DNA of 64,000 bases from Oscillospiraceae bacterium (GTDB lineage Bacteria > Bacillota > Clostridia > Oscillospirales > Acutalibacteraceae). Made by a program: the position numbers and the translations under genes. The notes below the pieces were generated by a model. That model was given only the letters and a program-made list of their open reading frames with translations. It was not told where the DNA came from and searched no databases. The stretch is taken from positions 8,535 to 72,534 of the forward strand of contig SVOH01000003.1 in NCBI GenBank assembly GCA_015066515.1, in the 5' to 3' direction. Shown here piece after piece: positions 51-7,320 of this stretch (the first letter of the stretch is position 1; each line of letters opens with the position of its first letter).

Positions 51-105
51 TTTTATTCTCCTTATGTTTATTCGCCCGAGAATAGCCAAAGGAGTTTTTA
101 TTGTT

Positions 106-167
106 TTCTCGCAAATTTCTCGCAAATTTCTCGCAAAAATTCAGATGTTTTTCAAAATCTCGCAGAA
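106..167. repeat. 11-bp tandem repeat TTCTCGCAAAT x3 (106-138) plus a degenerate 4th copy ATCTCGCAGAA (157-167)
   Basis: Read directly from the sequence. Spacing is one helical turn. It lies between a divergent CDS start and the tRNA-like gene. Confidence 0.75.
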
Positions 168-196
168 CAGATGGAAATATTGCAGTTTTCAGGGAC

Positions 197-285
197 GGAG
201 AGGGGCGGTGCGGTAGATACTGCCTTTTGCTCGAAATCAGTTAGGGAGCAATCCCCCGCGAGTTCGAATCTCGCCGTCTCCGCCA
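197..285 (+). tRNA. tRNA-Ser-like gene (class II, anticodon-loop-like CTCGAAA = CGA) with a degenerate anticodon stem; possibly a pseudogene or a non-decoding tRNA-like RNA
   Basis: Acceptor GGAGAGG/CGTCTCC pairs at 6 of 7 positions, followed by discriminator G and an encoded CCA. T arm is GCGAG-TTCGAAT-CTCGC and the long variable arm is GGGA-GCAA-TCCC. The 5 nt on each side of the anticodon loop do not form a stem (at best 3 Watson-Crick pairs). Confidence 0.55.
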
Positions 286-357
286 AGGACAACCGTAATC
301 TTAGGATTGCGGTTGTTTTCTTTTTATGATATAATATCTAAAAAGGAGTGGATATTT

Positions 358-909: not shown

Positions 910-1530
910 ATGAAGGTTTTAATGATTAATGGTAGTCCTCGCGCAAATGGTAATACAAGTGTTGCTCTTGCAGAAATGGAAAAGGTTTTTCACATAAACG
1001 GTATAGAAACCGAAATTTTTCAAATAGGTAATCGTGACATTCGTGGCTGTATGGCGTGCGGTTACTGCTTTAAAAACGGAAAATGTGCTATTGACGACGT
1101 TATAAATCAAGAACTTGCTCAAAAATTTGAGGAGTGTGATGGCTTGGTTGTTGGTAGCCCTGTATTTTACGCTTCGGCAAATGGCAGTCTTATTTCACTG
1201 CTTGACAGGCTTTTTTATAGCACGTCGTTTAATAAGACTATGAAGGTCGGTGCCAGCGTGGCCGTTGCGCGCCGTGGTGGCTGTACTGCCACTTTTGATC
1301 AGCTTAATAAGTACTTTACCATATCGGGTATGCCTGTAGCTTCGGGTCAGTATTGGAACAGTGTTCACGGACGCAAGGTAGGTGAGGCAGTAGGCGATGA
1401 AGAAGGTCTACAGGGTATGCGCACCTTGGCCGAGAATATGTCTTTCTTGATAAAGAGTATCGCCTTAGGCCGCGAAAAATACGGTATTCCCGAAAAAGAA
1501 AAATGGATAATGACAAATTTTGTAAGATAA
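910..1530 (+). CDS. flavodoxin-fold NAD(P)H-dependent FMN reductase / iron-sulfur flavoprotein-like protein
   Basis: N-terminus MKVLMINGSPRANGNTS. Compact Cys motif CMACGYCFKNGKC (CX2CX2CX5C), typical of iron-sulfur flavoproteins. Confidence 0.7.
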   Translation: MKVLMINGSPRANGNTSVALAEMEKVFHINGIETEIFQIGNRDIRGCMACGYCFKNGKCAIDDVINQELAQKFEECDGLVVGSPVFYASANGSLISLLDRLFYSTSFNKTMKVGASVAVARRGGCTATFDQLNKYFTISGMPVASGQYWNSVHGRKVGEAVGDEEGLQGMRTLAENMSFLIKSIALGREKYGIPEKEKWIMTNFVR

Positions 1531-1571
1531 AATCATAACTACCGGCACGGCCGGTAGTTATGATTTTTTTA
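1531..1571 (+). terminator. intrinsic terminator of the flavoprotein gene
   Basis: Stem AATCATAACTACCGG / CCGGTAGTTATGATT followed by a T-run. Confidence 0.8.
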
Positions 1572-1671
1572 TTGTTTGTTATCGTACTTATTATCGTTTT
1601 TCTTGTTGTCATTTTTATTCTGGTTGTTTTTATTTTCGTTTTTGTTTTGGTTTTTATTCTTGTTGTCGTTC

Positions 1672-1722
1672 ACAAAAATCACCCCGCTTTCAGTAGTATT
1701 GTTTACTGAGTACGGGGTGATT
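1672..1722 (-). terminator. intrinsic terminator after tatD (minus strand)
   Basis: AATCACCCCG (1677-1686) pairs with CGGGGTGATT (1713-1722), with an inner TCAGT/ACTGA pairing. A T-run follows on the minus strand. Confidence 0.6.
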
Positions 1723-1727
1723 ATTCG

Positions 1728-2510
1728 TTATTTGATTTGGAACAAATTTTTAGCATTTTTAGCCGTTAAATTTAAAATTTGTTCGGTTGTAGTACCGCGT
1801 ATTTCGGCGATTTTTTGCGCTGTGTATTTTATTAACCCTGAATGACACAACTTTCCGCGATAGGGCACGGGTGCAAGGTAGGGGCAATCGGTTTCGACGA
1901 GTAACAGCTCGTCGGGTATAATTTTTACCACGTCGGGTAATTTTTTTGCGTTATTAAAGGTAATTACACCGCCGACACCAATATACATTCCGAGTTTTAT
2001 AATTTCCTGTGCCATTTCTACACTGCCAGAAAAGCAATGCACAACACCCTTCGGCTTATACTTTTTAAGTATTTCCATTGTGTCACCGTGAGCGTCACGG
2101 TTATGGACAAGTATTGGTAAGTTGAGTTCCTTAGCGAGCAAAATCTGCTTTTCAAAAATGTCAATTTGGCTCTGCTTGTTATCGTCTACCCAATAATAGT
2201 CAAGACCAATTTCACCTATGGCTACACATTTTGGGTGATTGGCGAGCGACCTTATTTGCTCGGGTGTTGTACCCGAATCAATATTACCCGGGTGAATGCC
2301 CACAGCGGCATAAATAAAGCTATAGTCTTCTGCCATTTTAAGAGCTTTTTTAGATGATGCTTCGTCACAACCACACGTTACGATACCACACACACCGTTT
2401 TGGTGCATTTCATGGAATAACTCGTCACGAATGTAGTCAAAACGTTCATCGTCATAATGCGCGTGAGTATCAAAAATAGGGTATGAGTTTATTAAATCGT
2501 CGCTATACAT
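1728..2510 (-). CDS. tatD: TatD-family metal-dependent hydrolase (DNase)
   Basis: Motifs FDTHAHYDD and VHCFSG. The start at 2510 forms a TAATG overlap with the metG stop. An alternative ATG at 2525 would add 5 aa. Confidence 0.85.
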   Translation of the reverse strand: MYSDDLINSYPIFDTHAHYDDERFDYIRDELFHEMHQNGVCGIVTCGCDEASSKKALKMAEDYSFIYAAVGIHPGNIDSGTTPEQIRSLANHPKCVAIGEIGLDYYWVDDNKQSQIDIFEKQILLAKELNLPILVHNRDAHGDTMEILKKYKPKGVVHCFSGSVEMAQEIIKLGMYIGVGGVITFNNAKKLPDVVKIIPDELLLVETDCPYLAPVPYRGKLCHSGLIKYTAQKIAEIRGTTTEQILNLTAKNAKNLFQIK

Positions 2511-4432
2511 TATCTGATTTTGCATCCTTCGGGAATATCATCTACAAATATCACCTTAACGTCATCATCGGGGCAGTCGGCTGCCAAAATCATACCGTTT
2601 GACTCAACACCGCAAAGTGTAGCAGGCTTAAGGTTTGATACAACGATTACAGTGTGACCGATAAGCTCGTCGGGTGTATAGTATTTTGCAATGCCCGATG
2701 CTACTGTACGGGGCTTCCCACTTCCGTCGTTGAGTGTGAGTTTTAAGAGCTTCTTTGCTTTTGGAATAGGCTCGCAAGCCACGATCTTAGCAGTTGTAAG
2801 TTCAACCTTTGCAAAATCGTCAATAGAGATTTCGGGTAATTTTACTATGTTTGCAGCCTTTTCTGCCTCAGCGGCTTTTTTAGCCTGCTCGGCTGCGATT
2901 TCTTCAAGAACCTTTGGCATATCAATACGGGCAAAAAGCGGTGTTGCTTCGCCTACGGTGAATTCATTTACTTTGCCAAATGCAAGCTCATTACAATCAC
3001 TGTTGATTTGAACCGCAATACTCTTACAGCTTGACGGAATAACGGGAGTGAGCATAATGCTAAGCATACGAATACCCTCAAGCAAGTTGTAAAGTACATC
3101 GTTAAGACGGGGAAGAGTAGCCTCGTCCTTTGCAAGCACCCAAGGTGTTGTTTCGTCAATGTATTTGTTTAAGCGTTTTGCAAAGTTCATAACGCATTCG
3201 CACGCATCTGCGTTGCGGTAAGAATCCATAAGTGAATAATACTTTTGGATTGTTTCATTAGCACAAGCAATAAGCTCGTTGTCTAAATCTTCAAATGCTT
3301 CAGGTGCAGTCACCTTGCCACCAAAATACTTATTAGTCATAGCAACAGTGCGGTTTACAAGGTTGCCGAGTGTATTAGCAAGGTCAGCATTAAACTTTGT
3401 AATAAAGCTTTCGTAAGTTATGGTACCGTCTTGTGTAAACGGTATTTCAGAAAGCAGGTAGTAACGAACAGCATCTATGCCGAAACGAGCGGCAAGCTCA
3501 TCAGCATAAATAACGTTGCCCTTTGATTTAGACATTTTGTCTTCGCCTACAAGCACCCACGGGTGACCGAGAACCTGTTTTGGTAATGGCTCACCCAAAG
3601 CCATCAATATAATTGGCCAGTAAATAGTATGGAAACGCACAATATCTTTACCTATAACATGCAAATCGGCAGGCCAAAGCTTTTTGTACTGCTCGCTACT
3701 ACCATCGGGGTTGTAGCCAACACCTGTGATATAGTTTGAAAGAGCATCAATCCAAACGTAGATAACGTGTTTGTCATCAAAGCTTACGGGCACGCCCCAC
3801 TTGAATGATGAACGCGATACACAAAGGTCTTGCAGACCGGGTTTGATAAAGTTATTTAGCATTTCGTTTTTACGAGATTCAGGTTTAATAAAGTCAGGAT
3901 TTTGCTCGTAGTATTCAACTAACTTGTCCTGATATTTTGAAAGACGTAAGAAGTAAGCCTCTTCTTTAGAGTCAATAACCTCACGGCCACAGTCGGGGCA
4001 TTTGCCGTCTACAAGCTGGCTTTCGGTATAAAATGATTCACAAGGCACACAATATTTGCCTTCGTATGTGCTTTTATAGATATCTCCTTGGTCGTATAGC
4101 TTTTTAAATATCTTTTGAACAGCATCCTCGTGATAGTCATCGGTTGTACGAATGAATTTATCATAACAAGTGTCAAGTGAGTCCCAAACTGCCTTAATAT
4201 TAGCAGCAGCATTGTCAACAAATTCTTTAGGACTGATGCCGTCAGCCTTTGCATATTCTTCAATCTTCTGACCATGCTCGTCAGAGCCTGTCATTAAATA
4301 AACGTCAAAGCCCATCATTTTTTTGTAGCGGGCAATCATATCAGCAAGCACTATATCATAAGCGTTGCCTATGTGTGGCTTACGAGATGCGTAAGCAATG
4401 GCGGTGGTGATGTAAAATTTTTGTTTGTCCAT
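2510..4432 (-). CDS. metG: methionine--tRNA ligase with C-terminal tRNA-binding (EMAP-like) domain
   Basis: HIGH-type motif KPHIGNAYD, KMSKS motif DKMSKSKGN and zinc knuckle CVPC...CPDCG. SD AGGAGG lies at 4446-4441. Confidence 0.95.
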   Translation of the reverse strand: MDKQKFYITTAIAYASRKPHIGNAYDIVLADMIARYKKMMGFDVYLMTGSDEHGQKIEEYAKADGISPKEFVDNAAANIKAVWDSLDTCYDKFIRTTDDYHEDAVQKIFKKLYDQGDIYKSTYEGKYCVPCESFYTESQLVDGKCPDCGREVIDSKEEAYFLRLSKYQDKLVEYYEQNPDFIKPESRKNEMLNNFIKPGLQDLCVSRSSFKWGVPVSFDDKHVIYVWIDALSNYITGVGYNPDGSSEQYKKLWPADLHVIGKDIVRFHTIYWPIILMALGEPLPKQVLGHPWVLVGEDKMSKSKGNVIYADELAARFGIDAVRYYLLSEIPFTQDGTITYESFITKFNADLANTLGNLVNRTVAMTNKYFGGKVTAPEAFEDLDNELIACANETIQKYYSLMDSYRNADACECVMNFAKRLNKYIDETTPWVLAKDEATLPRLNDVLYNLLEGIRMLSIMLTPVIPSSCKSIAVQINSDCNELAFGKVNEFTVGEATPLFARIDMPKVLEEIAAEQAKKAAEAEKAANIVKLPEISIDDFAKVELTTAKIVACEPIPKAKKLLKLTLNDGSGKPRTVASGIAKYYTPDELIGHTVIVVSNLKPATLCGVESNGMILAADCPDDDVKVIFVDDIPEGCKIR

Positions 4433-4445
4433 AATTTATTCCTCC

Positions 4446-4722
4446 TAGGCTGACGGTGGTCGAACCGGTTATGGTTTCAAACGCCGCCTTTTGTCGATTT
4501 TCTTATATTTATGTTTGTATGACGGTAGTCTTACTGTAAACTTCACGATTCACCTCTCGTAAAAGGCGGCCGTGAGAAACTCCTTGACCTGCCAAATAAA
4601 TAATTTTTTGGGAGGGTGAAGCCGAAGAGTGCAGTAATACTGGCGTATTACAAACGATGAGGCAAGAAAAAACATAAAATTATTATTTGTCAGGCATAAC
4701 GGGTTCGGCTTCCGTCAGCCTA
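4446..4722. other. structured intercistronic element: 28-position closing inverted repeat enclosing two long hairpins (a three-way junction)
   Basis: 4446-4473 pairs with 4695-4722 (24 WC + 2 G-T in plus sense + 2 mismatches). Inner helices are 4483-4492/4561-4570 and 4588-4607/4676-4694, the latter with apical stem GTAATAC-TGGC-GTATTAC (4634-4651). The element spans exactly from the TAG stop of the upstream gene to the metG SD. Confidence 0.5.
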
Positions 4723-7320
4723 TGGTTTTCGAATGAGAAAACCGATTATTGATAAAACGGTTGTGCCAAGTGCGTAAAGCAAAACTGTTGATGCCTGTGG
4801 CATTGACATAAAGCCTGAAAAAGAGGCATACACAAAATACATAATACCGAATATCGCAAATAATATATACATAATTGTAAGCAATTTATTTGAACGTATA
4901 ATCATTGAGGCGCAATTAATGATTTTTACCAAATTTAATTGTGAGCCTCGGTATGCCGCAGGTGCGGAACAAATTGATACATCTGGTGTTATGTTTTTAA
5001 GCATATAGACACCGGCATTTGACATTACTTTTACCGAACCCTCATATAAGTCAAAATAATCACATATCATTTCCTCGGTTATATTGGGGTCGCAGTTTTC
5101 GACTAAAAGTGTAAGCCCTAAATTTGTAATTTTACGTAGCTCTTTTGCAATTTCAGTTCTCGCCTCGTATTGTATTATAATAAGTGCACAAGCGGTGTCG
5201 GTGGTTGCTACATATACAGGGAAATATCCGTTACGTAAAATCTTTTTATCTATTTCAAGACTGGGTATTTGTATGCCATGGGCCTGCATAAACGAACGGT
5301 TACCTATAAATAGCAATTCGTTATTTACCCATCCGGAAATACCAAGATTTTTTTCGTATTTTACAGTATCGGAATCGGGAATGGTGTATGAGCTGTTAGT
5401 GCCTGCAATCTGGTTAAAGATTGCCTCAAGCGGACTTTTAACAGCTGCGGTAAGCGATGCCGCACGCAAAATGGTGTCATCAATATTATTGTTGGATAAC
5501 ACCTTCATACTGTACATTTTTATAGAGCCCGTTGGGAAAATGTCGTTTATATGAACAACGGCGGCATTTGTAAGGTCTAATCTTTCGGCACCGTACATGC
5601 CCGCAATCATTGAACCTTTTGAATTAAGCTTTTTAGAAGCGACTGATAAAGGTAAGCTGTCAATAAAGAATAATGTTGGTATAGCTGTAACACACGAAAC
5701 AACAGCGGCACTATAAAACGCATCAAATATACTTTGATAATAAAAATATGCTATAATTCCACACAAGACAGAGAATACCAAACTAAAATAAAACATAAAA
5801 GGACCTTTGCCCGAAAGCTTTGGTGCAAATTCGGTATGCTTAATATAGTCTGAAAGTAGTACTGTTTTGCGGGGTGCCGCAATAAGAACATCACCGTCTA
5901 TGGTGTTTTTAGCCATTGCAAAAGTGGTTGCAGGGTCGTCTATAAGTGTTATGGCTTTTTTATCGCTGTTATTTAGAATTTGTTTAAGGTTGCCAATTTT
6001 ATAAGAAATTTCTTTAAAATTGCATATTGCTCTCATCAGCAATATTATTGCACAAAGTAAAATCATATAATACGCATTGGCATCGGTAAGTGCCGCACAA
6101 ACTGTAAGCGATAGTGAAAAAATCGCGCCAAGAGCGGCAATAGCGTCAAAACCACATTGTTTTGAGACGAGGTTTTTAAGGTCAAAAAACATATTAATGT
6201 TTGCTACGACCGAAAGCAGTAAAAATGCTCCGCAGGTAAACATTGCGTTTTTAGGTTTTGCTATAATAAAGTCAAAAATAGGGGGGAGTAAAAACACTAG
6301 CAACGCAATAACACTTAAAGCAGAAACAAAAACGCTTATAAATCCGGAACGCTTTTTTATTGCAAGCTCTCGCATAATTTTTTTACCGCTCGCAATATCA
6401 GTTATTTCATTTTTTGGTGTAAATTTTTCAAACTCGGATTGTTCAAAGCTTTGTAATGGACTTTGCGAAGAAATATCTTCAACATAATCTTCGCCCAAGT
6501 CGATGTGCCTCGTAGAGCTGCTTATAGTTATATGGTCGGTATTACCTTTGGTATCTTTCACAGGAGTAAAACGAATAGTTGCGGTATTAGACATCTCACC
6601 GGGGGTAGTTATACCAACTTCTTTGTTATCGATATCTGAAATATTGGGCACACTTGCGTCTGGAATTTCTTCTAGCTTTTTGTTGTCTGTAAAAAGATTA
6701 TCAAACATCTCTTGTGTTTCGCGCTTTTCTGATTCGATTACCATTTTTTCAAACGCTACAGTAGGTTTGATTGCAGAATTCGTTTTTTCGGAAAAGGATG
6801 GTTTGGTTGGTTCTTCGCTATTGGTGTCGGTATTGTTAATATCAATGCCGTATTTTTCCGAAAGGCTTTTCATAGCACTTTCGCCATCACTCATAAGAAT
6901 TTCTGCAACAGATTCAAGGTGATAAAGCGGTTCATTATTTTCGGAAGCATCTTTACCATGCTCATCTATTGTATATCGTTTTACTTTTTCAACAAGTGTC
7001 TTATGTGAATTATCCTCTTGGTTGTCAATGTGCTGGGTAGTTTTATCCAAATTATTTGAGTTTGGTTTAGAAGCAGGTTCTTTTGATTCTTCGCTTTGGG
7101 GTACGGTTGCCGATACGTTCATACGTTTTTTTAGCGAGTCAAGAGCTCCCGTTTGTGTTACATTAGATTCATCATCGCCAAATATCCAAAGGTTAGAGAC
7201 CTCGTCGGGAGTCATAGCGTGAGGAGCTAAATTTTGATCACCTGATATTTTTATAGGTTCATCGTCGGTATTTATAATAAATCCGTTGTTTTCATCTTTT
7301 CGTTTTGAGAAAAATCCCAT
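4720..7320 (-). CDS. polytopic membrane protein homologous to P1B-type ATPases but with degenerate catalytic motifs; ~330-aa polar/acidic N-terminal region
   Basis: Blocks are collinear with a P-type ATPase, but DKTGT is replaced by NDIFPTGS, SEHP by VKSP and TGD by NCD. There are multiple TM segments. Confidence 0.6.
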   Translation of the reverse strand: MGFFSKRKDENNGFIINTDDEPIKISGDQNLAPHAMTPDEVSNLWIFGDDESNVTQTGALDSLKKRMNVSATVPQSEESKEPASKPNSNNLDKTTQHIDNQEDNSHKTLVEKVKRYTIDEHGKDASENNEPLYHLESVAEILMSDGESAMKSLSEKYGIDINNTDTNSEEPTKPSFSEKTNSAIKPTVAFEKMVIESEKRETQEMFDNLFTDNKKLEEIPDASVPNISDIDNKEVGITTPGEMSNTATIRFTPVKDTKGNTDHITISSSTRHIDLGEDYVEDISSQSPLQSFEQSEFEKFTPKNEITDIASGKKIMRELAIKKRSGFISVFVSALSVIALLVFLLPPIFDFIIAKPKNAMFTCGAFLLLSVVANINMFFDLKNLVSKQCGFDAIAALGAIFSLSLTVCAALTDANAYYMILLCAIILLMRAICNFKEISYKIGNLKQILNNSDKKAITLIDDPATTFAMAKNTIDGDVLIAAPRKTVLLSDYIKHTEFAPKLSGKGPFMFYFSLVFSVLCGIIAYFYYQSIFDAFYSAAVVSCVTAIPTLFFIDSLPLSVASKKLNSKGSMIAGMYGAERLDLTNAAVVHINDIFPTGSIKMYSMKVLSNNNIDDTILRAASLTAAVKSPLEAIFNQIAGTNSSYTIPDSDTVKYEKNLGISGWVNNELLFIGNRSFMQAHGIQIPSLEIDKKILRNGYFPVYVATTDTACALIIIQYEARTEIAKELRKITNLGLTLLVENCDPNITEEMICDYFDLYEGSVKVMSNAGVYMLKNITPDVSICSAPAAYRGSQLNLVKIINCASMIIRSNKLLTIMYILFAIFGIMYFVYASFSGFMSMPQASTVLLYALGTTVLSIIGFLIRKP

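Follow-up and report, generated by a model that had tools for sequence, protein, structure and literature searches.

The window (the whole 64,000-nt stretch of DNA that we analyzed) contains, immediately upstream of metG, a region of 277 nt that is closed by a long inverted repeat and that fills the space between the stop codon of one gene and the Shine-Dalgarno (SD) sequence of the next. Is this region a leader that regulates metG, or did it arrive there in some other way? A preliminary description favored an RNA that couples the translation of metG to that of the upstream gene or that affects the processing or stability of the mRNA, and gave a MITE-like insertion as the alternative. We find that the region is very probably a non-autonomous, MITE-like mobile DNA element of about 275 nt that duplicates TA.

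The element and its host genes

The inverted repeat exists as first described: its arms of 28 nt are complementary at 24 of 28 positions (86%), and all 24 are Watson-Crick pairs. A 23-nt probe from the arms, with up to 3 mismatches, has one occurrence in the 64-kb window and none in 100 shuffles, and we found no further copies in the window with either a pattern that allows 3 mismatches or blastn with a word size of 7. The two inner helices and their cap are also present (Table 1); the first helix is complementary at 10 of 10 positions and the second at 79%. One arm starts on the TAG stop codon of an 866-aa open reading frame on the minus strand, as had been noticed. The other arm does adjoin the metG SD, but it does not lie one nucleotide away: it overlaps the first A of AGGAGG.

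The upstream gene had been labeled ATPase-like, but its product has no match in Pfam and is a polytopic membrane protein instead. In the mRNA sense, neither a promoter nor a U-run terminator was found in 4300-4900, which agrees with the preliminary description; nor did this interval contain a sigma-70-like promoter, and no promoter or terminator was found on either strand. Given these results and the gaps of 12-19 nt between the genes, metG is likely to be co-transcribed with the upstream genes, as was suggested.

The element is 43% G+C over its 277 nt. The open reading frames inside the window copy are all 41 aa or shorter, that is, without coding capacity for a transposase. A 41-aa frame (4675-4550, minus strand) was considered as a conserved micro-ORF and rejected: it resembles an open reading frame in the L123 copy by nucleotide similarity only. 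Its ATG is absent from L092-type copies, there is a frame shift, L124 has stops, and the differences are spread over the three codon positions (12/12/16).

Table 1. Parts of the element and the adjoining host signals, by position in the window
Feature	Position	Strand	Remark
Entire inserted element	4446..4722		275 nt and a duplicated TA (277 nt with the TA on both sides)
TA, one copy of the target dinucleotide	4446..4447		All copies are TA-bounded, with only one TA in each empty site; on the minus strand, GGAGG follows directly, and the metG SD starts with the A
TA, second copy of the target dinucleotide	4721..4722		On the minus strand, the TA of the TAG stop
Left terminal inverted repeat, TAGGCTGACGGTGGTCGAACCGGTTATG	4446..4473		The family terminus TAGGCTGACGGGAGTCGAACCCGT is homologous
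Right terminal inverted repeat, CATAACGGGTTCGGCTTCCGTCAGCCTA	4695..4722		Pairs with the left arm
tRNA-like terminus, a decayed form of the canonical ACGGGTTCGACTCCCGTCAGCCTA	4699..4722	+	The canonical terminus matches tRNA-Leu(GAG)
T-stem ACGGG/TCCGT of the tRNA-like terminus	4699-4703 / 4711-4715	+	Within 4699..4722
T-loop-like TTCGGCT of the tRNA-like terminus	4704-4710	+	Within 4699..4722
Acceptor-like CAGCCTA of the tRNA-like terminus	4716-4722	+	Within 4699..4722
Internal hairpin 1, GGTTTC...GAAAC	4474..4580		Holds GCCGCCTTTT/AAAAGGCGGC at 4483-4492/4561-4570
Internal hairpin 2, AU-rich stem 4588-4606/4676-4694	4588..4694		Helices 6-9 of the family consensus
Cap GTAATAC-TGGC-GTATTAC of internal hairpin 2	4634-4651		UA<->CG covariation in the cap helix
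TAG stop of the 866-aa membrane-protein ORF	4720..4722	-	Rebuilt from the target TA and the G with which the element starts
metG SD AGGAGG 4446-4441, 8-nt spacer 4440-4433, ATG 4432-4430	4430..4446	-	Host flank of the insertion

Filled and empty sites

Four relatives (L126, L127, L129, and L130) are syntenic at this locus, with the gene order enolase / SpoU methylase / 87x-aa protein / metG / tatD / FMN reductase. In each of them, the metG junction is empty: the two genes are 12 nt apart, the stop codon overlaps the SD, and the junction reads ...CCG TAG GAGGAATAnAnn ATG (with upstream context, ...CGAAAACCG TAG GAGGAATAnAnn ATG). This is what remains of the window sequence once the element and one TA are taken out. 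At L128, the junction is TAG-GCTGACGG-CC-TAGGAGG, which is a 13-nt remnant of the element's termini.

A second pair of filled and empty sites lies at a Zn-ribbon gene, where the target is TA|GGAGGAAT, as at the metG junction. L135 is empty at this site (...TTTATA TAG GAGGAATGAGA ATG), and L123 is filled at that TA, with the upstream open reading frame ending at 4327 on TA plus the G of the element, the same arrangement as at metG. L131-133 have an internally deleted copy of 47 nt at this site, and the flanking protein is 99% identical. At both of these independent loci, there is a single TA in the empty site and a TA at each end of the element in the filled site; a 2-bp TA duplication is formally equivalent to the insertion, beside a TA, of an element that carries one terminal TA.

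Judged by these sequence comparisons, the region at 4446-4722 is an insertion and not a dedicated metG leader. The target was very probably the TA of ...CCR-TAG-GAGGAAT..., where the upstream stop codon overlapped the metG SD, and this TA was duplicated. With an element that starts with G and ends with ...CC, the TAG stop was rebuilt on one side and TA-GGAGG kept on the other, which is very probably why the arms appear to start at the stop codon and to end at the SD.

Dispersed copies

BLAST found full-length homologues at L098, L116, L092, L005, L123, and L124. Homologues occur at unrelated genes in other Oscillospirales genomes, and every copy is bounded by TA. The L123/L062 copy is between genes for Prok-RING and Zn-ribbon proteins; a copy of 160 nt (L125) is between the genes for V-ATPase subunits F and A; the L092 copy is at the 3' end of tyrS; and the L005 copy is upstream of a gene for a Cys/Met PLP enzyme. 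L124 has a degenerate full copy as well as a mini copy of 31 nt, and L010 has a 31-nt mini copy. The size classes are the full element (~277 nt) and deleted forms of 160, 47, and 31 nt, and some copies have decayed to shorter forms in place. Both orientations relative to the downstream gene are represented, with the window copy opposite to L123/L125. L092-type copies are 92-95% identical across different genomes and contexts. The preliminary description had named dispersed copies and absence from close relatives as grounds against a metG-specific regulator; we found both, and the empty sites and the dispersed, TA-bounded homologues bear out the MITE-like insertion that it gave as the alternative. 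The element at the level of DNA, which it had left open, turned out to be the answer.

The family has termini of the type TAGGCTGACGG..., and the pair of termini has the pattern TAGGCTGAC...GTCAGCCTA. The base before TA varies among copies (C, A, G, or T). The matches listed put the family at no fewer than 7 separate sites, in 8 or more genomes or contigs, with an apparent copy number of about 1 per contig of 64-213 kb; also among the matches listed, two genomes have multiple pieces (L124, full and mini copies within 2.2 kb; L005, a copy and a fragment). A scan of metagenomes with a TA-anchored pattern for the terminus gave three stretches only. The apparently low copy number is unusual for MITEs and counts against that reading.

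Bacterial MITEs have terminal inverted repeats (TIRs), 5'-TA-3' termini, a target-site duplication, transcripts that form long stem-loops, and filled and empty sites (PMC2229807). Classic bacterial MITEs are under 200 bp, and this element is longer and less A+T-rich than these (PMC2229807). The best reading is that the copies form an undescribed and apparently low-copy MITE family with TA duplication. Neither a transposase nor a full-length insertion sequence with matching termini was found in the flanks of any copy or in the window, and no HUH or RAYT gene was near the copies; blastn against annotated plasmids and phages gave no match, and a scan of viral contigs gave 0. This, too, counts against the MITE reading. 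By analogy with RUP, we give roughly an even chance to mobilization in trans by a TA-duplicating transposase, with the IS630/Tc1-mariner type being the likeliest.

Such a family would add to the mobile elements known from uncultured Clostridia of the gut and the rumen, and it has three unusual traits: termini like the 3' end of tRNA-Leu; a preference for TA|GGAGG junctions, or survivorship at them, with both signals regenerated; and one insertion allele that is spread patchily across species.

Fold and its conservation

The element has a predicted folding energy of -93 kcal/mol in the mRNA sense (z = -6.4) and of -113 kcal/mol on the plus strand (z = -9.1), and 0 of 200 shuffles were as good in either case. 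The three-way junction that the preliminary description had put together from the helices was recovered as the minimum free energy (MFE) structure of the window copy's mRNA-sense strand, as that of the best-preserved relatives, and as the RNAalifold consensus over seven family members (81 pairs, with 95.6% of cells paired). A rod-shaped fold was rejected: it is the MFE structure of the window's plus strand alone, and the three-way junction was obtained both for the consensus and for the copies that are best preserved.

In the closing helix, 96.2% of cells are paired across the seven copies, and the arms are conserved. Across the consensus, 23 pairs changed on both sides; shuffles gave 13.2 +/- 1.9 such pairs, and slid controls gave 2-5. 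Both-side changes affect 3 of the 14 pairs of helix 2 (hairpin 1; 96.9% of cells paired) and 7 of the 17 pairs of helix 6 (hairpin 2). These compensatory changes across subfamilies show that something maintains the fold itself, and to that extent they count against the MITE reading.

At the family level, the fold is strand symmetric. The consensus folds at -81.19 kcal/mol on one strand and at -81.15 kcal/mol on the other, and the L092-type copies fold at -135 and -134 kcal/mol; a strand-specific RNA as a property of the family was rejected because of these equal energies. In the metG-site copies, non-Watson-Crick pairs are biased such that the antisense fold is stronger than the mRNA-sense fold by 20-28 kcal/mol, a pattern that is based on three related copies. 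The predicted closing helix pairs the side of the stop codon with the first 3 nt of the metG SD.

We searched Rfam with the element region on both strands at E <= 10 and found no family except for chance matches to miRNA- or snoRNA-like hairpins, and at the gathering score nothing in the window fell on the element. ARAGORN called tRNA-Trp and tRNA-Met elsewhere in the window but no tRNA or tmRNA at the element. The novelty relative to known RNA families that was assumed earlier is consistent with the Rfam result.

Termini that resemble the 3' end of a tRNA

The canonical terminus of the family, ACGGG-TTCGACT-CCCGT-CAGCC, matches the 3' end of tRNA-Leu(GAG) from Oscillospiraceae perfectly, over 22 of 22 nt. 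The Rfam tmRNA model has a local match of 17 nt to the T-arm in the canonical L123 copy (14.4 bits, versus a gathering score of 47). In the L124 variant, the acceptor/T-stem/T-loop architecture is kept with different letters. The motif is on both strands, being part of the inverted repeat. The solo forms of 31 nt are exact minihelices (12 bp and a 7-nt loop); in full-length copies, a large insert is enclosed by the paired 5' and 3' ends, which resemble an acceptor stem, as in tmRNA. The element differs from a tRNA acceptor/T-arm minihelix and from the tRNA-like domain of tmRNA in that it is without D or anticodon arms, a discriminator, or CCA and has TA in place of GC at the acceptor end. In the literature on bacterial MITEs, we found no report of tRNA-like termini or of targeting to stop/SD junctions.

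The family may, though we consider this improbable, be a mobile tRNA-minihelix cassette whose termini are functional and which homes to TA|GGAGG stop/SD junctions. If so, the cassette would be a transposable module of operon punctuation that turns coupled gene pairs into separately processed cistrons; RNase P, RNase Z, CCA-adding enzyme, enzymes that modify T-loops, or RNase III would act on its transcript; and the spread of the filled allele between species could be accounted for. We counted for this reading the match to tRNA-Leu(GAG) and the kept architecture of L124, the local compensatory changes within single termini, the two independent insertions at one 10-nt stop/SD target, and the unusually high cross-species identity of the metG-site copies.

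Age and spread of the insertion at metG

Six metG-site sequences (the window, L098, L116, and L120-122) have the element in the same orientation. L098 is 97.5% identical to the window element, and L116 is 87.7% identical. Between species, the element is more similar (97.5%) than metG (89%) or the 866-aa gene (71%), and four-fold sites in the neighboring genes are only 0.45-0.73 identical, which is near saturation. Substitutions in the metG-site copies affect paired columns (0.111) and unpaired columns (0.139) alike and are mostly one-sided. High identity next to near-saturated synonymous sites, together with substitutions that are blind to structure, points to a young insertion allele and not to a constrained regulator. 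The 97.5% identity across species would also be expected under strong purifying selection, and to that extent it counts against the MITE reading. We rejected vertical inheritance under purifying selection as the main cause because the synonymous sites are near saturation and yet the element is 88-97.5% identical, the filled loci are polyphyletic in the tree of the neighboring gene, and the substitutions ignore the structure.

In a tree of the 866-aa gene, filled loci are interleaved with empty ones. The filled allele is present in at least 3 lineages and in all of the inspected contigs with this exact MetG, and the excess similarity among filled loci reaches only ~300 nt into metG. The filled allele is probably younger than the species splits, with a patchy spread. 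It would have spread most simply via short-tract homologous recombination through the highly conserved flanks; alternatively, the element may have inserted repeatedly at a preferred target.

Alternative explanations

Could the element instead be a cis-regulatory RNA that is dedicated to metG and acts in the mRNA sense, either as an intercistronic leader or as a divergent T-box-like riboswitch? Its location, which extends exactly from a stop codon to the SD of a gene for an aminoacyl-tRNA synthetase, its very stable fold, the covariation in the three-way junction, and the lack of an internal promoter or terminator would all fit. However, neither T-box nor any other Rfam family matched at E <= 10; close relatives without the element have the same SD 12 nt after the upstream stop; copies are found at the V-ATPase, Zn-ribbon, tyrS-3', and PLP-enzyme loci, with the opposite orientation relative to the downstream gene; and structure is equal on both strands at the family level, with the mRNA sense being the weaker one at the metG site. 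We consider such an RNA very unlikely. The absence of the element from four relatives, the copies at unrelated genes, and the structure-blind substitutions speak against a metG-specific coupling or processing RNA as its identity, and translational coupling survives only as a plausible reason for the toleration of the insertion. Equally unlikely is a gene for a strand-specific small RNA that would be encoded on the plus strand, in antisense to the operon, and have an acceptor/T-arm domain like that of tRNA or tmRNA. The window copy folds better on that strand (-113 versus -93 kcal/mol), G.U pairs in window-type copies favor it, its 3' end mimics a T-arm and acceptor better, and the tmRNA model matches the canonical terminus locally. 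But ARAGORN made no call, the tmRNA match covers 17 nt at 14.4 bits versus 47, no Rfam family reached its threshold, neither strand has a promoter or terminator, L092-type copies and the family as a whole have no strand bias, and the element is absent from close relatives. Least likely of all, in our view, is an inverton, in which a recombinase would act at the inverted repeats and flip the segment, thereby controlling metG. A segment of ~220 bp between 28-bp inverted repeats directly upstream of a gene has the right form, the T-arm-like dyads resemble the core sites of recombinases, and family members do occur in both orientations relative to downstream genes; yet all six metG-site sequences are in one orientation, there is no promoter inside the segment and no recombinase gene among the neighbors, and the empty sites and the TA duplication point to insertion and not to a resident switch.

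Two further alternatives accept that the element is mobile, and we regard each of them as unlikely, though clearly less so than the readings above. One is that the element moves as a single-stranded hairpin, by an HUH/Y1 enzyme (as in PATEs, which derive from IS200/IS605) or as in REP/REPIN-RAYT systems, and not by a DDE transposase. Each terminus is itself a dyad (ACGGG-7 nt-CCCGT), compensatory changes in L124 and L005 keep the dyad of one terminus at a cost to the pairing between termini, and internal hairpins are also kept by compensatory change; REPINs share the layout of two inverted palindromes, a hairpin abuts the TA at two target sites, and an element with one TA of its own could likewise produce TA...TA by inserting 3' of another TA. 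Against this, 28-bp TIRs and symmetric TA are typical of DDE elements and not of IS200/IS605 ends, the varying base before TA leaves no GTAG-type or 4-5-nt cleavage motif, the copy number among the matches listed is far below that of REP/REPIN families, and the local dyad of the left terminus is broken in 3 of 7 copies. The other alternative is exaptation: the element arrived by mobility, and the filled allele was then kept and passed between species for a benefit to the host, such as uncoupling metG from a fast-evolving membrane gene, providing an RNase III site, or stabilizing the 5' end of the metG mRNA. Several observations are consistent with exaptation: between species, no segment of the locus is as conserved as the element (97.5%, versus 89% and 71%); the filled allele is in at least 3 lineages and all inspected contigs with the exact MetG; the SD has its first 3 nt paired in the closing helix; non-Watson-Crick pairs at the metG site weaken the mRNA-sense fold by 20-28 kcal/mol relative to the antisense fold; and Correia and ERIC elements provide a precedent for changed mRNA processing and stability. 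However, the G.U bias is based on three related copies, and recent transfer accounts for the identity equally well and is supported by the ~300-nt halo of similarity in metG. In addition, the element is absent from four syntenic relatives and was deleted at L128, there is a deletion among near-identical relatives at the L123 site, and substitutions between the window and L116 are equal in paired and unpaired positions and rarely compensatory.

Comparison to known elements

By description, one close likeness to the MITE-like element at metG is in the Correia/NEMIS elements of Neisseria. These have TIRs of 24-26 bp, 5'-TA-3' termini, a target-site duplication, filled and empty sites, and both full-length and internally deleted size classes (PMC2229807); they are co-transcribed as a long hairpin (PMC2229807), and the duplex formed by their TIRs is a substrate for RNase III (PMC10969869). 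Correia elements differ in being 100-155 bp and present in hundreds of copies, with a possible IHF site and promoters, whereas our element is 277 nt and apparently low-copy, with a three-way junction, tRNA-like termini, and no promoter-like site. RUP of Streptococcus pneumoniae, which is mobilized by IS630-Spn1, is likewise a non-coding MITE of a Firmicute that inserts at TA, with inferred mobilization in trans by a TA-duplicating transposase (PMC2229807). RUP is only 107 bp, has ~108 copies per genome, and has TIRs that match a known insertion sequence; for our element, no such match was found and the copy number is apparently low. ERIC/IRU elements of enterobacteria, which are also imperfect palindromes, are transcribed together with the genes beside them and can make the flanking mRNA more or less stable (PMC2229807), but they are 127 bp, with short TIRs, are from Proteobacteria, and have no tRNA-like termini.

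REP doublets and REPINs share with the element two small inverted palindromes that form a long hairpin and are kept by compensatory change. They have a conserved 5' tetranucleotide of the GTAG type, hundreds of copies, and a RAYT gene, whereas here the base before TA varies, there are 1-2 copies per contig among the matches listed, and no RAYT gene was seen. T-box leaders, like the element, are structured regions of 200-300 nt directly upstream of aminoacyl-tRNA synthetase genes in Firmicutes. Unlike them, the element matches no T-box model in Rfam at E <= 10, has no terminator or antiterminator, is absent from close relatives, and is found at genes that do not encode synthetases and in both orientations. 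For annotation, this means that a stable and covarying structure that extends from a stop codon to the SD of a synthetase gene can mimic a riboregulator and yet be the scar of a transposon.

The element is probably transcribed within the operon of the rlmB-like gene, the membrane-protein gene, and metG. Its insertion may have been tolerated because the stop codon and the SD were regenerated and the closing helix would bring the two together again. A terminating ribosome could free the partly paired SD. RNase III, which cleaves the TIR duplexes of Correia elements (PMC10969869), could also free it by cutting the 28-bp duplex; Correia and ERIC elements are known to alter the processing and stability of mRNAs (PMC2229807, PMC10969869). 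The matched genomes are a natural experiment in which an essential, translationally coupled gene has had its SD separated from the preceding stop codon by 275 nt of hairpin.

A mobile element at the metG site

The preliminary description of this region proposed that the 277-nt inverted-repeat segment upstream of metG is an intercistronic RNA element, with a MITE-like insertion as the alternative. The inverted repeat and the inner helices are present as described (see the table): the terminal arms are complementary at 24 of 28 positions (86%), and a 23-nt arm probe, with up to 3 mismatches, had 1 occurrence in the 64-kb window and 0 in 100 shuffles. As had also been reported, 4300-4900 contains neither a promoter-like site nor a minus-strand terminator. 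Rfam searches of both strands of the element region found no family at E <= 10, nothing there reached a gathering score, and ARAGORN called no tRNA or tmRNA in it. The upstream gene had been called ATPase-like, but its product is not recognizable as an ATPase: it is a polytopic membrane protein without a Pfam match, in which a hydrophilic N-terminus of about 320 amino acids precedes several hydrophobic segments.

Coordinates of the element, its neighbors, and the sites and copies compared with it
Locus	Feature	Coordinates	Strand	Description
Window	metG	2510-4432	minus	640 aa; class-I Met-tRNA ligase domains
Window	metG Shine-Dalgarno sequence (SD), AGGAGG	4446-4441	minus	
Window	Upstream ORF	4720-7320	minus	866 aa; TAG stop at 4722-4720
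Window	Arms of element	4446-4473/4695-4722		
Window	Inner helix	4483-4492/4561-4570		10/10 complementary
Window	Inner helix	4588-4606/4676-4694		79% complementary
Window	Cap hairpin GTAATAC-TGGC-GTATTAC	4634-4651		
Window	Hairpin beside target	4723-4744		8 bp
L098 (goat MAG RGIG3004)	Filled metG site	4771-5047		Same TA as window
L116 (sheep MAG RGIG6394)	Filled metG site	1583-1856		Same TA as window
L120-L122	Filled metG site			Three inspected contigs; same TA; MetG identical to window's
L126, L127, L129, L130	Empty metG site			...CGAAAACCG TAG GAGGAATAnAnn ATG; 12-nt gap
L128 (GCA_054285285.1)	Remnant at metG junction	6237-6264		TAG-GCTGACGG-CC-TAGGAGG; 13-nt remnant
L123 (= L062, UMGS976)	Copy			277 nt; between Prok-RING gene and Zn-ribbon gene
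L131-L133	Copy at L123 site			47 nt, internally deleted; protein 99% identical
L134	L123-type site			Unrelated spacer
L135	Empty L123-type site			...GCTATGTTTATA TAG GAGGAATGAGA ATG; protein 74% identical
L125	Copy			160 nt, internally deleted; between V-ATPase subunits F and A; site TA|AAGGAG
L092	Copy	1513-1786		274 nt; overlaps tyrS 3' end
L005	Copy and fragment			275 nt, plus 53 nt 1.1 kb away; upstream of Cys/Met PLP enzyme gene
L124 (2.2-kb contig)	Degenerate full copy	82-343		
L124	Window-type mini copy	1354-1384		31 nt; 1 kb from full copy
L010	Mini copy			31 nt; upstream of AzlC-family gene (1601-2317)
L101	Copy			Truncated by contig end

In the window, the element's ends read cc|TA|GGCTGACGG ... 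CCGTCAGCC|TA|tgg. Removing the element and one TA predicts the minus-strand junction ...GAAAACCA TAG GAGGAATAAATT ATG, in which the stop codon overlaps the metG SD. Homologues of the 866-aa protein are numerous in uncultured Clostridia, and we searched for empty metG sites in the DNA around five of them (L126-L130). All five loci have the gene order enolase, SpoU-type methylase, 87x-aa protein, metG, tatD, and FMN reductase. Four of them match the predicted junction, so the element is absent from syntenic relatives, which the preliminary description had said would count against its regulatory reading. The remnant in the fifth, L128, consists of the element's two extreme ends. Given the clean empty site in its sister lineage, L129, the remnant shows that the element was gained and later lost at one and the same TA.

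A search that started from the Zn-ribbon protein encoded downstream of the L123 copy gave a second filled/empty pair. L123 carries the element at exactly the TA that is empty in L135, where the TAG stop overlaps the SD, as in the empty metG sites. The metG and L123 sites have the same 10-nt target, TA|GGAGGAAT; the filled/empty comparisons therefore indicate that one 10-nt sequence was struck by two independent insertions. Both times, the TAG stop was rebuilt by the element's first G, and the SD is intact.

A dispersed family of copies

We searched species-representative genomes with the arm consensus and metagenomes with a TA-anchored version of it. Homologous elements turned up in other Oscillospirales genomes, and every copy recovered is bounded by TA. 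Compared end to end, window-type and L092-type copies share about 70% identity; L092-type copies taken from different genomes and contexts share 92-95%. The window copy points the opposite way from those in L123 and L125 when each is read relative to its downstream gene. The comparisons show an insertion that is flanked by TA on each side, and empty sites have one TA only. The element is found at unrelated loci, in either orientation, contains no conserved ORF, and decays through internal deletion. Deletion between short direct repeats (ACGGG, CCCGT, GGTT) that each palindromic terminus makes can account for the short forms. The viral contigs, plasmids, and phages that we searched gave no match.

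In L092, the tyrS frame (299-1552) runs 40 nt into the element before its stop, so the last TyrS codons were probably replaced by the insertion. Of the arm-pattern matches listed, those in high-GC genomes such as Streptomyces and haloarchaea have the look of chance ones, the pattern itself being rich in GC.

Architecture and strand symmetry

An alignment of seven copies (A1) has a three-way junction as its consensus, with the terminal-repeat helix and two long hairpins (81 pairs; 95.6% of cells paired). L123 and L092, the best-preserved copies, have the same junction as their minimum free energy (MFE) structure (-134 and -135 kcal/mol, respectively), so the three-way junction drawn in the preliminary description was correct. 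Changes on both sides were seen in 23 pairs, versus 13.2 +/- 1.9 in column shuffles (0 of 500 reached 23) and 2-5 in slid controls, but these counts overstate the number of independent events, as there are effectively three lineages (window-type, L092-type, and L124).

The two strands of the family consensus have nearly the same energy (-81.19 vs. -81.15 kcal/mol), as do those of L092-type copies (-135/-134 kcal/mol), and G.U counts over the union of both strand predictions are 32 and 22. A strand-specific RNA fits this pattern less well than does a palindromic DNA element; the preliminary description had allowed for a DNA-level element. For the window's own copy, the mRNA-sense strand forms a three-way junction (-93 kcal/mol; z = -6.4 vs. 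shuffles), and the plus strand forms a single rod (-113 kcal/mol; z = -9.1).

In the metG-site copies of the window, L098, and L116, the non-Watson-Crick pairs are mostly plus-strand G.U, antisense to metG (ratios of 4:1, 6:0, and 10:4), so that the mRNA-sense fold falls short of the antisense fold by 17-28 kcal/mol. L092-type copies have no such bias. The bias might be a product of chance, of mutation bias, or of selection for a weaker mRNA hairpin.

tRNA-like termini

About 60 of the genome-scan matches listed (among L001-L119; for example, L007 48-134 and L032 2211-2297) are tRNA-Leu(GAG) and not elements: they match the reverse complement of the 3' end of the Oscillospiraceae tRNA, ...ACGGGTTCGACTCCCGTCAGCC-GCACCA. 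The canonical terminus of the element, ACGGG-TTCGACT-CCCGT-CAGCC-TA, equals this 3' end over 22 nt, and beyond a 1-nt indel a further 5 nt on the variable-arm side are also similar. The acceptor-end GC of the tRNA is TA in the element. The 31-nt mini copies are exact acceptor/T-arm minihelices. In L124, the divergent terminus ACAGG-TTCGAGT-CCTGT-CACAC-TA has changed letters but keeps the acceptor/T-stem/T-loop layout; its two termini, TAGTGTGGCAGGACTCGAACCTGCC and GACAGGTTCGAGTCCTGTCACACTA, differ by a compensatory pair that retains each local dyad, and L005 has a comparable local double change. The window's termini have decayed, to ACGGG-TTCGGCT-TCCGT at the plus-strand 3' end and to ACCGG-TTCGACC-ACCGT, with two mismatches in the 5-bp stem, at the mRNA-sense 3' end adjoining the SD. 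The Rfam tmRNA model gave a 17-nt local match to the T-arm-like hairpin of L123, at 14.4 bits, far below the gathering score of 47. Many species of Lawsonibacter, Pseudoflavonifractor, and Flintibacter have exactly the same 3' 22 nt in tRNA-Leu(GAG).

Age and spread of the metG-site copy

Between the window and L098, nucleotide identity is 97.5% for the element, 89% for metG, 85% for tatD, and 71% for the 866-aa gene; the element is 87.7% identical between the window and L116. Identity at four-fold degenerate sites of the neighboring genes is only 0.45-0.73, close to saturation. The tree of the 866-aa gene intersperses filled loci among empty ones: the window falls with empty L126 and L127 (82% amino acid identity), L098 with empty L130 (84%), and remnant-bearing L128 with empty L129 (80%), and L116 is the outgroup. 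Unlike this tree, synonymous sites of metG and tatD put the window closest to L098, a conflict that implies a recombination breakpoint at or near the element. The extra similarity common to filled loci covers only about the first 300 nt of metG. Substitutions between the window and L116 are about as frequent in paired columns (0.111) as in unpaired ones (0.139), and 2 of 16 affected pairs changed on both sides. Together, the element's identity set against saturated four-fold sites, the interleaved tree, the 300-nt similarity, and the structure-blind substitutions indicate that the filled allele is much younger than its host lineages, is decaying neutrally, and has repeatedly been acquired, lost, or exchanged. 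Its spread would be explained most simply by short-tract homologous recombination through the very conserved flanks; the alternative is repeated insertion at a preferred target.

The 866-aa ORF evolves much faster than its neighbors (59-90% amino acid identity where MetG has 92-97%).

Mobility or regulation

The structure is real and striking, but what looks like design is the footprint left by a mobile element that targets TA. Filled and empty sites at two loci, TA ends, and dispersed copies all bear out the MITE-like alternative. It has the features that define bacterial MITEs in a review (PMC2229807): terminal inverted repeats, filled/empty sites, 5'-TA-3' ends with target-site duplication, and, probably, long stem-loop transcripts. 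Unlike the described families, which are under 200 nt, it is 277 nt long, forms a three-way junction, has tRNA-Leu-derived termini, targets a stop/SD overlap, and has an apparently low copy number. Neither PMC2229807 nor PMC10969869 mentions tRNA, and the full-text literature searched gave no account of such an element. No transposase gene lies beside any copy, and the searches turned up no partner IS. We infer mobilization in trans by a TA-duplicating transposase, perhaps of the IS630/Tc1-mariner type, for which RUP and IS630-Spn1 are a precedent (PMC2229807). The rival to such a transposase is a single-strand mechanism that recognizes hairpins. That the minihelix termini work at the RNA level, making the element a mobile operon-punctuation cassette, seems quite improbable.

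The element is probably transcribed within the operon. In the mRNA-sense MFE structure, the closing helix extends two pairs past the arms, so the first three bases of the SD (A-G-G) are paired with the stop-codon side. Initiation at metG would then probably depend on ribosomes terminating at the TAG to open the helix, or on RNase III cleavage of the 28-bp duplex, a reaction that has been shown in Correia elements (PMC10969869). The translational coupling proposed earlier is not supported as an evolved regulator, but it may account for the tolerance of the insertion: the SD/stop pairing and its opening or cutting are a plausible reason that the insertion is tolerated and not evidence of regulation that evolved.

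The hairpin at 4723-4744 (mRNA sense, CGGTTTTC-TCATTC-GAAAACCR) comprises the last 7 codons of the 866-aa ORF and directly abuts the TAG/TA target. Its nucleotides are near-invariant in 8 of 8 lineages, though the protein is only 59-90% identical among them. It may be a conserved hairpin that serves the coupling or stability of metG, or it may guide the element to its target. The L125 insertion site likewise has a hairpin immediately before it (GACCGC-TTTTTT-GCGGTC|TA).
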